A stretch of 64,000 bases of DNA from Escherichia phage vB_Eco_BCPEco_001, in the sequence record PV295200.1. One strand, given 5' to 3'. A program made the position numbers and the translations under genes. The notes beneath the pieces were generated by a model. It saw nothing but the letters and a program-made list of their open reading frames with translations, was not told the origin of the DNA and searched no databases. Below, piece after piece: positions 2,537 through 5,200 of the stretch (its first letter is position 1; every line of letters begins with the position of its first letter).

Positions 2537-3565
2537 ATGTCATCAATACCTTGGATTGATAATGAGTTTGCGTATCGTGCATTAGCTCATTTACCTAAAT
2601 TCACACAAGTAAATAATAGTTCAACTTTTAAATTGCGGTTTAGATGCCCTGTTTGTGGAGATTCAAAAACCGACCAGAATAAAGCTCGTGGATGGTATTA
2701 TGGTGATAATAATGAAGGAAATATTCATTGTTATAACTGTAACTATCATGCACCAATAGGAATATATTTAAAGGAGTTTGAACCTGATTTATATCGTGAG
2801 TATATCTTTGAAATAAGAAAAGAAAAAGGTAAAAGTCGTCCAGTAGAAAAACCTAAAGAACTTCCTAAACATCCTGAGAAGAAAATAATTAAATCTCTTC
2901 CGTCATGTGTTAGATTAGATAAACTGGCGGAAGACCATCCAATTATAAAATACGTAAAAGCTCGTTGTATTCCAAAGGATAAATGGAAATATCTTTGGTT
3001 TACAACTGAATGGCCTAAATTAGTTAATAGCATAGCACCGGGAACATACAAAAAGGAAATTTCTGAGCCTCGTCTTGTTATTCCAATTTATAATGCTAAT
3101 GGAAAAGCTGAGTCTTTTCAAGGACGTGCATTAAAGAAAGATGCTCCTCAAAAATATATCACCATTAAAGCTTATCCTGAGGCAACAAAAATATATGGAG
3201 TCGAACGAGTTAAAGATGGCGATGTATATGTTCTAGAAGGACCTATAGATTCACTTTTTATTGAAAATGGTATAGCTATTACGGGTGGTCAATTAGACCT
3301 AGAAATTGTTCCATTTAAAGATAGACGCGTGTGGGTTTTAGATAATGAACCTCGTCACCCTGACACTATCAAGCGAATGACTAAATTAGTTGATGCAGGA
3401 GAAAGGGTTATGTTTTGGGATAAATCTCCCTGGAAATCAAAAGATGTTAATGATATGATTAGAAAGGAAGGTGCAACCCCTGAACAAATTATGGAATATA
3501 TGAAAAATAATATTGCCCAGGGGTTAATGGCTAAAATGCGGTTATCTAAATATGCCAAGATTTAA
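2537..3565 (+). CDS. 61: DNA primase gp61
   Basis: 342 aa as T4 gp61; Zn-ribbon CPVCGDS...CYNC; TOPRIM-like core. Confidence 0.93.
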   Translation: MSSIPWIDNEFAYRALAHLPKFTQVNNSSTFKLRFRCPVCGDSKTDQNKARGWYYGDNNEGNIHCYNCNYHAPIGIYLKEFEPDLYREYIFEIRKEKGKSRPVEKPKELPKHPEKKIIKSLPSCVRLDKLAEDHPIIKYVKARCIPKDKWKYLWFTTEWPKLVNSIAPGTYKKEISEPRLVIPIYNANGKAESFQGRALKKDAPQKYITIKAYPEATKIYGVERVKDGDVYVLEGPIDSLFIENGIAITGGQLDLEIVPFKDRRVWVLDNEPRHPDTIKRMTKLVDAGERVMFWDKSPWKSKDVNDMIRKEGATPEQIMEYMKNNIAQGLMAKMRLSKYAKI

Positions 3566-3762
3566 ATTAACCCAACTAAAGCAAATGCTAGATCTACGAA
3601 TGTATCAAGAGTAACTACTGGAATATTAACACCATGCGCAATTGCAATTGGTGATAAAATAAAGTTCCAGAGTAAAATTCCTACCATAGCAGAAATAGTA
3701 AAAGCTATACGTTTCTTATTACCTTTGATGGCATTAACAAGTGCCATTAATTTTTGTGCCAT
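3562..3762 (-). CDS. Hypothetical small membrane protein (66 aa, about 2 TM helices), convergent to gene 61
   Basis: Minus-strand ORF with strong SD AAGGAGG 4 nt before ATG; stop overlaps gene 61 stop; extended -10-like TGTGATAAT upstream on minus strand. Confidence 0.4.
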   Translation of the reverse strand: MAQKLMALVNAIKGNKKRIAFTISAMVGILLWNFILSPIAIAHGVNIPVVTLDTFVDLAFALVGLI

Positions 3763-3805
3763 ATGTCCTCCTTTAAATTAATATTATCACAAATTTCATA
3801 AATTT

Positions 3806-3838
3806 GTTTACTTTCTCAGCTTGTTATGGTATTATAAA
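3806..3838 (+). promoter_or_regulatory. T4-type early promoter upstream of 186-aa ORF
   Basis: GTTTAC ... TGGTATTATAAAAT. Confidence 0.65.
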
Positions 3839-3860
3839 ATAAATTGCTGAGGATGATATA

Positions 3861-4421
3861 ATGATTAATAAAATTGTGCATGAAATGGCTTTAAACGGAG
3901 ATTCATATAAAATATCTGCCGTAGTTGAAAATTTCATACTTAATAAAGTAAAAGAATATTTCACTGATTGTTCAGTTAGTTATCAAGAAAAAATGGTTTT
4001 AACCGATGATACTGAAAAATCAAATAATTTGTTTTGTTCTAATTTTATAACTAAGAAGCGTACTAGAAGATTTGATATTGTTATTTCTCGCAACGGTAAA
4101 AAGCATATAATTGAAATTAAACACCAAGTTGGTGGAGGTACAGCTATTGATTCGGTTGGAATATATTTAGAAGATAAAGAGAAATTAAAAGAATACACAA
4201 AAACTGAAAACCCTGTGTCATTGATGATATTAGATTTTTTGCCATGCGGATATTATCCACGTAATAAATGGACAAAAAGAGAATCATTTACTGATAATCC
4301 AACTATCCAAGCAAGGTTTAATGAATATGCTAAATCACAAAACGTGTTAGTATTACTATCAAATACATATGATGAAGAATTGTATAATTCATTTTTTGCT
4401 GCAATAAATGAGAGAATATAA
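3861..4421 (+). CDS. Hypothetical protein with PD-(D/E)xK-like nuclease motif (186 aa)
   Basis: Own early promoter and RBS GAGGA; motif [20 protein letters not shown] (D-x12-E-x-K); stop overlaps dam ATG (ATAATG). Confidence 0.6.
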
Positions 4422-5200
4422 TGCTAGGAGCTATCGCGTATACAGGTAATAAACAGTCATTATTGCCTGAACTTAAGCCTCACTTTCCAAAATATGACAG
4501 ATTCGTGGATTTATTTTGTGGAGGTTTATCAGTGTCTTTGAATGTTAATGGTCCTGTATTGGCCAATGATATTCAAGAACCAATTATTGAAATGTATAAG
4601 CGTCTTATTAATGTATCATGGGATGACGTTTTAAAAGTAATAAAGCAATACAAACTATCAAAAACATCAAAAGAAGAGTTTTTGAAATTACGTGAAGATT
4701 ATAATAAAACTAGAGATCCTCTTTTACTTTATGTTCTTCATTTTCATGGGTTTAGTAATATGATTCGTATAAACGATAAAGGAAATTTTACTACTCCGTT
4801 TGGAAAAAGAACTATAAACAAAAATAGTGAAAAACGCTTTAATCACTTTAAACAAAATTGTGATAAAATAATCTTTAGTTCATTGCATTTTAAAGATGTC
4901 AAAATTCTAGACGGCGATTTTGTATATGTGGACCCTCCATATCTTATAACAGTTGCTGATTATAATAAATTTTGGTCAGAAGAAGAAGAAAAAGACCTTT
5001 TAAATCTTTTAGATTCTTTAAATGACAGAGGAATAAAATTTGGGCTGTCGAATGTTTTAGAACACCACGGAAAGGAAAACACTCTTCTTAAAGAATGGTC
5101 TAAAAAATATAATGTTAAGCATCTTAATAAAAAATACGTCTTTAACATATATCATTCCAAAGAAAAGAATGGAACTGATGAAGTATATATTTTTAATTAA
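4421..5200 (+). CDS. dam: DNA adenine (GATC) methyltransferase Dam
   Basis: 259 aa as T4 Dam; DPPY motif; FCGG SAM-binding motif. Confidence 0.93.

Follow-up and report, generated by a model that had tools for sequence, protein, structure and literature searches.

The 64,000-nucleotide stretch of Escherichia phage vB_Eco_BCPEco_001 analysed here (record PV295200.1; the window) carries a 186-aa open reading frame (ORF) between the primase gene 61 and dam, and its product is predicted to be a PD-(D/E)xK nuclease. We consider it fairly probable, going by the sequence, that this ORF and dam make up a compact type II restriction-modification-like (R-M-like) cassette carried by the phage. A restriction-type nuclease family with one-sided linkage to Dam, together with the scar left by the nuclease gene in T4, would mean that the T-even Dam methyltransferase is, or was, the methylase half of such a cassette. 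A sequence-only reading of the window had seen a nuclease signature in the ORF and left an R-M-like, a methyl-directed and an anti-defence module as alternatives; the R-M-like one fits best, by the one-sided linkage to Dam and the repeated loss of the nuclease. The window belongs to a T2-like Tequatrovirus, with the T4 gene order 41, dmd, 61.4, sp, 61.2, 61.1, 61, followed by dam and 56. Its Dam protein is 100% identical to that of the T2 dam record M22342 (1989) and 98-100% identical to T4 and T2 Dam. Positions 3400-4600 match 503 Tequatrovirus records by megablast and are 100% identical to Shigella phage vB_Shso_BCPShso_001 and Salmonella phage vB_Sen_BCPSen_003.

Linkage to dam, mobility and decay of the nuclease gene

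In all nine lineages examined, the gene that immediately follows the nuclease gene encodes a Dam-family (PF02086) methylase, and the stop codon of the first gene overlaps or abuts the start codon of the second. The loci read were those of the window, Dhakavirus MX01, two Klebsiella Jiaodaviruses, the metagenomic P0002, P0005, P0006 and P0009, and the more distant P0011 and P0014. In the window the nuclease stop codon TAA (4419-4421) and the dam ATG (4421-4423) have one base in common (ATAATG), as had been read before. The recurrence of such junctions across lineages supports the co-expression and translational coupling proposed from the window. Among T4-like phages the pair occupies at least three genome positions. 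In MX01, as in the window, it stands between genes 61 and 56. The Jiaodaviruses carry it between a denB-like gene and ndd, with a nuclease 42% and a Dam 61% identical to those of the window, and in P0014 it stands directly upstream of rIIA.

The linkage is one-sided. Dam homologues were found in 454 phage records and the nuclease in 163, and Dam occurs without the nuclease in RB49, RB16 and an Aeromonas phage, where the upstream genes are unrelated. No nuclease without Dam was seen among the homologues with readable context. As in type II R-M systems, the genes are adjacent and co-inherited, and the nuclease is not kept without the methylase while solitary methylases occur. Together with three separate nuclease lesions in which dam was kept (below), this is the signature expected of a toxic nuclease with a protective methylase.

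Some loci depart from this arrangement. The ORF upstream of RB49 dam was considered as a diverged nuclease homologue and rejected (hhalign probability 0.1%). Aeromonas phage GomatiRiver_11 has dam at the primase-56 locus, with its start overlapped by denV (pyrimidine-dimer glycosylase) and not by a nuclease gene. In Klebsiella phage KP182 (OM337876), the Jiaodavirus locus at which SmallBear has the pair (1757-3209 of the extract, minus strand) encodes a different, 210-aa protein instead. This protein has a PD-(D/E)xK-like VDIVASKNGETLVIDVK motif and scores 19.9 bits with Pfam Hjc (cutoff 21.1). Its gene overlaps that of a second Dam-family methylase (278 aa), and the usual Dam comes next. The 210-aa protein and the second methylase may represent a further R-M-like module carried by phages, within a variable island.

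The nuclease gene and dam are gained and lost together. T6 and RB5 contain neither. They match the window to position ~3773, and the match begins again at the gene 56 promoter (TTGCTT...TATAAT), so that the 66-aa ORF on the opposite strand is followed directly by that promoter. Since these phages keep the 66-aa ORF, the mobile unit is the block at ~3772-5201, and the 66-aa ORF lies outside it. The cassette is present in ~145-154 Tequatrovirus records. Among the matches listed across the 503 records, most cover query positions 1-374 only, i.e. to the start of the 66-aa ORF, which suggests that dam-less relatives of the T6 type are the majority of Tequatroviruses. The cassette edges (3772-3835 and 5201-5235) carry a stem-loop and an early-promoter-like site on the left and the gene 56 promoter on the right. 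They are reminiscent of the promoter/stem-loop cassettes that have been proposed as mediators of modular shuffling in T4-type phages (PMC2839356).

Patchiness of this kind among near-identical genomes could also be produced by a homing-type selfish endonuclease, which would cut cassette-free T-even genomes near the empty site and spread by repair like the seg and mob enzymes, with Dam as a passenger or self-protection gene. The clean cassette boundaries and the several genome positions would suit such an element, and in T4 gene 56 is followed by the homing endonuclease gene segF. We nevertheless give this explanation little credence. A homing enzyme is bound to one target site, whereas here the insertion site varies and the Dam partner is constant. 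Profile searches found no GIY-YIG or HNH domain in the nuclease family, and the genes occupy no single fixed locus as free-standing seg/mob enzymes do. The explanation also overlaps the R-M-like reading, as an R-M pair in co-infection would spread in a homing-like manner too.

T4 itself has lost most of the nuclease gene. The earlier reading tentatively took T4 to have no gene at this position, and alignment bears this out. In the T4 RefSeq record NC_000866.4 the spacer between genes 61 and dam measures 309 bp (17626-17934) and has no annotated gene. A 548-bp deletion between the 8-bp repeats ATCACAAA at window positions 3786 and 4334 has left only the last ~80 nt of the nuclease ORF, joined to the left flank at the repeat. 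T4-type genomes accordingly match nuclease residues 159-186 by tblastn. On the alignment, the T4 spacer is the scar of a microhomology deletion that removed most of the nuclease gene. KarlGJung has independently lost 371 bp, between GATGATAT repeats at 3852 and 4223, and keeps a C-terminal fragment of 61 aa; here the ATG of a mini-ORF is fused in frame to nuclease residue 123. A run of six T within the ORF is reduced to five in T2, phage 107 and T4 and expanded to eight in KarlGJung, shifting the frame. In T2 and phage 107 the product is 181 aa and ends 13 nt before dam. T4, KarlGJung and T2 thus have separate nuclease lesions, and each retains dam.

Fold and family of the nuclease

The AlphaFold2 (AF2) model of the 186-aa protein (predicted local distance difference test, pLDDT, 80.3; predicted template modelling score 0.79) has the order alpha-beta-beta-beta-alpha-beta. 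The D-x12-E-x-K signature of the sequence-only reading is present (D72, codon 4074-4076; E85, 4113-4115; K87, 4119-4121). D72 and E85/K87 are placed on the paired strands 67-77 and 80-88, an adjacent beta-hairpin. The protein has the PD-(D/E)xK core fold, the D...(D/E)-x-K motif and an acidic residue in helix 1. The proposed PD-(D/E)xK nuclease fold is therefore well supported, by a restriction-endonuclease-type model with the D, E and K residues juxtaposed and invariant. The best structural match is the 200-residue chain of MunI, and the protein is probably a minimal, homodimeric PD-(D/E)xK nuclease of about that size, as far as the model goes. The likeness to the methyl-directed GATC nucleases that had also been suggested (DpnI, MutH/Sau3AI) was not found, as none of the three is among the top 60 structural matches. 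A viral fold library returned the MX01 orthologue and otherwise only weak generic endonuclease matches.

The family is small. A word-indexed search of 5.8 billion proteins gave 10 matches and an exhaustive profile search of 1.84 billion representative proteins gave 11, and two loci only were found in IMG/VR. All matches with readable genomic context are in T4-like phages. In an 11-sequence alignment reaching down to 29% identity, E23, D72, E85, K87, H88, Q89 and G93-S98 are invariant, the last within a conserved GGTAIDS loop (residues 92-98). Three further proteins were left out of the alignments and are probably assembly or gene-calling artefacts: in P0008 and P0010 the C-terminal part of the nuclease is joined to unrelated domains, and P0016 is a 765-aa repeat protein. 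Neither the protein sequence nor the family profile found anything relevant in the PDB, and the NCBIfam search gave noise only. PHROG 8706, to which the protein belongs, is listed as of function not known. The GenBank record of Shinka names the gene 'putative DpnII restriction endonuclease', and it is hypothetical in all other records listed or inspected. Our literature search found no paper describing the nuclease or the 66-aa gene.

The nuclease ORF is under purifying selection. SmallBear and Shinkou differ by 10 synonymous and 2 nonsynonymous changes, and the window and Shinka by 3 and 0. Between the window and MX01, nonsynonymous divergence (dN) is 0.29 and synonymous divergence (dS) 1.5, a ratio of ~0.19. 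The nuclease ORF and the 66-aa ORF are both kept as ORFs across genera, with a lower proportion of nonsynonymous (pN) than of synonymous differences (pS). Selection in several lineages, the invariance of the E/D/E/K residues and the similar size of MunI, an active enzyme, all speak against a catalytically dead remnant. Such a remnant would be a former restriction enzyme now serving as a DNA-binding or Dam-modulating accessory, or without function. The protein is about half the size of the restriction enzyme DpnII, lacking its N-terminal ~140 residues. The nuclease has often been lost without obvious harm (T4, KarlGJung, T2), and T2 and T4 dam mutants are reported to be viable, all of which would fit decay. 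On balance we regard a dead protein as improbable.

Expression signals and the neighbouring 66-aa gene

The nuclease ORF starts at the ATG previously assigned to it, preceded by a ribosome-binding site (GAGG, 3849-3852) that had likewise been seen. A mini-ORF of two codons (ATG ATA TAA, 3855-3863) overlaps this start codon (ATGATATAATG). The early promoter that had been attributed to the ORF is less secure. A consensus-like site stands upstream of it (Table 1), but such sites are not above expectation, as positions 3400-5400 contain 11 promoter-like matches versus 13.2 expected from shuffled sequence. The Lutter record has a plus-strand promoter at the window equivalent of ~3844-3874, which does not coincide with this site. 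The highest score in the region belongs to a site within the nuclease ORF, ~120 nt before dam, which could let the methylase be expressed independently. For EcoRI, a methylase promoter arrangement within the nuclease gene has been described.

Table 1. Features at the gene 61-dam locus, in window coordinates
Feature	Position	Strand	Remark
Gene 61 (primase)	2537-3565		
Gene for a conserved small hydrophobic (membrane) protein, 66 aa	3562-3762	-	PHROG 2024; convergent with gene 61
Terminator-like hairpin and T-run	3725-3750	+	Downstream of gene 61; antisense to the 5' part of the 66-aa ORF
Shine-Dalgarno sequence AAGGAGG of the 66-aa ORF (CCTCCTT on the plus strand)	3767-3773	-	4 nt before the ATG
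Mobile two-gene cassette	~3772-5201	+	Promoter region, nuclease ORF and dam
TGTGATAAT (ATTATCACA on the plus strand)	3783-3791	-	Upstream of the 66-aa ORF
8-bp direct repeat ATCACAAA, left copy	3786-3793	+	T4 deletion end point
Early-promoter-like site GTTTAC-18-TATTAT preceded by TG (or TTTACT-17-TATTAT, 9/12)	3806-3835	+	Consensus match only
8-bp direct repeat GATGATAT, left copy	3852-3859	+	KarlGJung deletion end point; right copy 4223-4230
ORF for the predicted PD-(D/E)xK, type II restriction-endonuclease-like protein, 186 aa	3861-4421	+	PHROG 8706
Putative catalytic residue E23 of the 186-aa protein	3927-3929		Codon
Promoter-like site TGGACA-18-GATAAT, best-scoring of the region (10/12)	4269-4298	+	Consensus match only
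8-bp direct repeat ATCACAAA, right copy	4334-4341	+	From here to the dam ATG retained in T4
Six-T run in the nuclease ORF	4392-4397	+	
dam, D12-class GATC N6-adenine methyltransferase	4421-5200	+	Pfam PF02086, E 6.5e-51

The 66-aa ORF was confirmed on the minus strand, its last 4 nt overlapping the end of gene 61, and the near-perfect Shine-Dalgarno sequence was found as described. The earlier reading had treated this ORF together with the nuclease and Dam, and its distribution sets it apart from them. A tblastn search finds it in 692 phage records, next to the 3' end of the primase gene in every case, and it occurs in T6, RB5 and Mosigvirus, all of which lack the nuclease and dam. It is therefore not part of the cassette. 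Orthologues in Mosigvirus and Gaprivervirus are 44-56% identical, and positional orthologues in Dhakavirus MX01 and P0006-type loci are ~25% identical. Its presence in T4 was to count against the earlier reading. The T4 RefSeq sequence contains the ORF intact, though unannotated, with 3 amino-acid differences (2739-2939 of an extract in which the spacer is 2627-2935), and the RB5 record notes it as 'dam.1'. By that criterion it was already known as an ORF; PHROG 2024 is listed as of function not known.

A chance antisense ORF or a mere terminator region was considered as an explanation of the 66-aa ORF and rejected. Five genera, at 25-55% identity, retain the frame, the length (61-66 aa), the orientation, a strong Shine-Dalgarno sequence and the motif W-N ... 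P ... G ... P-x-V-T. The Shine-Dalgarno sequence is kept in these genera even though the sequence upstream of it differs. Synonymous changes outnumber nonsynonymous ones within Tequatrovirus (4-5 versus 2-3), and in distant pairs pN (0.33-0.35) is below pS (0.60-0.75). Of the two transmembrane segments claimed for the protein, one is clear (a hydrophobic span at ~19-43), while the hydrophobic C-terminal stretch (~47-66) contains two Asp. The terminator-like hairpin is sequence common to the convergent gene 61 and 66-aa gene, and 'terminator' features are listed under the matching region in the records of fPS-65 and ASO78A.

The extended -10-like site reported upstream of the 66-aa ORF is present in the window, but relatives have late-promoter-like sequences there. 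These consist of TATAAATA or one-mismatch versions of it, ~25-30 nt upstream of the ATG. MX01 has the exact TATAAATA at -29, T4 and Lutter have GATAAATA (an annotated promoter in Lutter), and T6, RB5, ST0 and TH40 have AATAAATA or CATAAATA. In the window and its two 100%-identical relatives a 1-nt deletion turns GATAAATA into GATAATAT, creating the minus-strand TGTGATAAT. Judging from these motifs, the 66-aa gene is probably expressed late, from a clockwise transcript.

Elsewhere in the neighbourhood, the ORF at the position of gene 61.2 (2012-2368) encodes 118 aa in the window and in Shinka versus 208 aa in T4 and T6. The interval between genes 41 and 61 also differs among relatives, e.g. by an additional ORF in RB5.

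The restriction-modification-like reading and known systems

The only recurring sequence similarity of the nuclease is to DpnII-type enzymes. The target of DpnII is unmethylated GATC, and DpnM, the methylase that goes with it, is a homologue of Dam. The Pfam DpnII family PF04556 (gathering score 23 bits) matches the window protein at 16.8 bits, MX01 at 19.0 and P0009 at 22.5, all sub-threshold, with no match for the other members; the window protein is also sub-threshold to BanI. The PADLOC profile PDLC03548 is matched by four of the 11 family members (best E 5.3e-6, window 9.1e-5), and at 420 bits by a genuine DpnII. PDLC03569 (205 positions, corresponding to DpnII residues 95-286) is matched by one member (E 0.004). 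These alignments all cover one core region, at profile positions ~143-235 of 278 in PF04556. Within it, hhalign pairs E23, D72 and E85 with DpnII E152, D201 and E214. The DpnII core and the 186-aa protein share the order of a Glu helix, three strands with RFD[IF]VI and IE[IV]x, a Gly-rich loop and helix-strand-helix-strand-helix. The C-terminal half of an AF2 model of DpnII (pLDDT 69) has the same secondary-structure order. The DpnII-family proteins were recovered with a seed sequence that is 99-100% identical to entries annotated DpnII or PF04556. It is plausible, from these alignments, that the 186-aa protein is a remote relative of the DpnII catalytic domain, with membership not established.

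The similarity to methylation-sensitive enzymes disfavours a methyl-directed nuclease, which would cut Dam-methylated GATC in cytosine DNA as DpnI does or nick GATC as MutH does. The phage Dam would then complete host methylation, the hydroxymethylcytosine (hmC) DNA of the phage would be immune, and the cassette would be a device for the demolition of host DNA. The obligate linkage of nuclease and Dam would agree with this, methylated GATC is abundant in Dam-positive hosts, and the Jiaodavirus cassette adjoins a denB-like gene for a cytosine-DNA endonuclease. With host Dam already marking the target, however, strict linkage to a phage Dam would not be required, and repeated loss of the nuclease with dam kept fits a toxin and antidote better than a cofactor. 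We therefore see a methyl-directed enzyme as quite unlikely. The one-sided linkage is explained less well by a methyl-directed enzyme, a homing endonuclease or a dead remnant than by the R-M-like reading.

For the R-M-like cassette we infer a scheme that extends to nuclease activity, GATC specificity, methylation sensitivity, dimer state and biological target. The nuclease gene and dam would be transcribed early, from the promoter-like site at the left cassette edge, into a bicistronic message in which translation of the methylase, the second gene, is coupled to that of the nuclease, the first. The nuclease would cleave at unmethylated GATC sites or close to them, and the phage would shield its own DNA by methylating these sites with Dam. 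Unmarked DNA in the infected cell would be damaged, be it that of co-infecting dam-less T-even relatives or under-methylated phage or plasmid DNA. Loss of dam would be penalised by the nuclease, which would explain why no nuclease gene has been seen apart from dam. Once the nuclease gene decayed, a solitary Dam would be left, as in T4. GATC-specific, methylation-sensitive cleavage, deduced from the Dam partner, is a tentative part of this scheme, one that we take seriously and would stop short of calling probable.

Several points weigh against the scheme or its link to DpnII. E. coli, Shigella, Yersinia and Klebsiella, the natural hosts listed, are enterobacteria. Enterobacterial hosts are Dam-positive, so host DNA would be no target of a methylation-sensitive GATC enzyme. 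T-even DNA has glucosyl-hmC, which blocks most type II enzymes, and the GATC sites of T2 and T4 are reported to be only partly methylated. For a classical R-M system, having the nuclease first and no control protein is a risk. No member of the nuclease family reaches the PF04556 gathering threshold. K87 faces DpnII Asn216 in the hhalign alignment (ExK versus ExN), and the probability of that alignment is 30-31% (P 5e-4), not rising above 31% when the DpnII profile is broadened with 75 genome-derived homologues. A local DpnII hidden Markov model gives the nuclease family 10-11 bits, and three of 3300 shuffled sequences score higher. In the PDB the DpnII model matches BstEII best and MunI only in 44th place. 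Among palindromic 4-mers, GATC is by far the most depleted in window positions 1-64000 (76 observed versus 212.5 expected, observed/expected (O/E) 0.36, z -11.5), followed by TCGA (O/E 0.62). T6, with neither dam nor nuclease, is equally depleted (O/E 0.33 in its positions 1-50000). The depletion is thus lineage-wide and not diagnostic of the cassette, and the idea that it is peculiar to cassette carriers was rejected.

Given Dam-positive hosts and glucosyl-hmC in T-even DNA, the most coherent target of an R-M-like cassette is unmarked DNA, notably that of dam-less T-even relatives. In the most specific form of the reading, an active miniature restriction enzyme with Dam as its antidote would act on unmethylated DNA, including the hmC DNA of these relatives, and carriers would exclude or convert co-infecting competitors. 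We regard this complete form as rather unlikely. If true, it would give T2/T4 Dam a raison d'etre and would amount to phage-against-phage restriction inside one genus. The ORFs themselves are already known and annotated in many genomes. What appears to be new is a restriction-type nuclease family with a one-sided, position-independent linkage to Dam, the T4 spacer as a scar and Dam as half of an R-M pair. A restriction-like family of very small size (186 aa) is of interest for enzyme discovery, for competition between co-infecting phages and for GATC avoidance in T-even phages.

Among known enzymes, the compact type IIP enzymes MunI (C^AATTG) and, loosely, those of the EcoRI type are alike in size. 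MunI is 12% identical to the 186-aa protein, with no sequence homology detectable, and differs in its partner methylase and likely target sequence. The DpnII/MboI/LlaDCHI family (PF04556) has a D12-class GATC adenine methylase as partner (DpnM), as in the window. DpnII itself is ~288 aa long, and the full-length architecture of an N-terminal helical and a catalytic domain (~280 aa) is not found in the 186-aa protein. The phage pair consists of a nuclease followed by a single methylase, whereas the DpnII operon has the order dpnM-dpnA-dpnB. Unlike DpnII, the nuclease family is confined to T4-like lytic phages among the matches found.

Chloroviruses encode type II R-M systems, e.g. R.CviAI and M.CviAI (GATC). 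There, as in the phage cassette, a lytic virus carries an adjacent nuclease and adenine methylase, and its own DNA is protected by the mark. The likeness is one of general description: chloroviruses target unmethylated host nuclear DNA, whereas the phage cassette belongs to an hmC-modified genome that infects Dam-positive hosts. The T4/T2 Dam protein is the textbook solitary phage methyltransferase and has been much studied biochemically. To our knowledge it has no clear biological role and no accepted function after ~50 years. Dam is solitary in T4, but in the window phage and ~150 other sequenced relatives, the classical T2 among them, dam comes second in a conserved pair of nuclease and methylase genes. 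This suggests that T-even Dam began as half of a phage-borne restriction-modification pair. T2-type, T4-type and T6-type phages represent natural +/+, -/+ and -/- genotypes for nuclease and dam, which makes the origin of Dam and its proposed role as an antidote directly testable.

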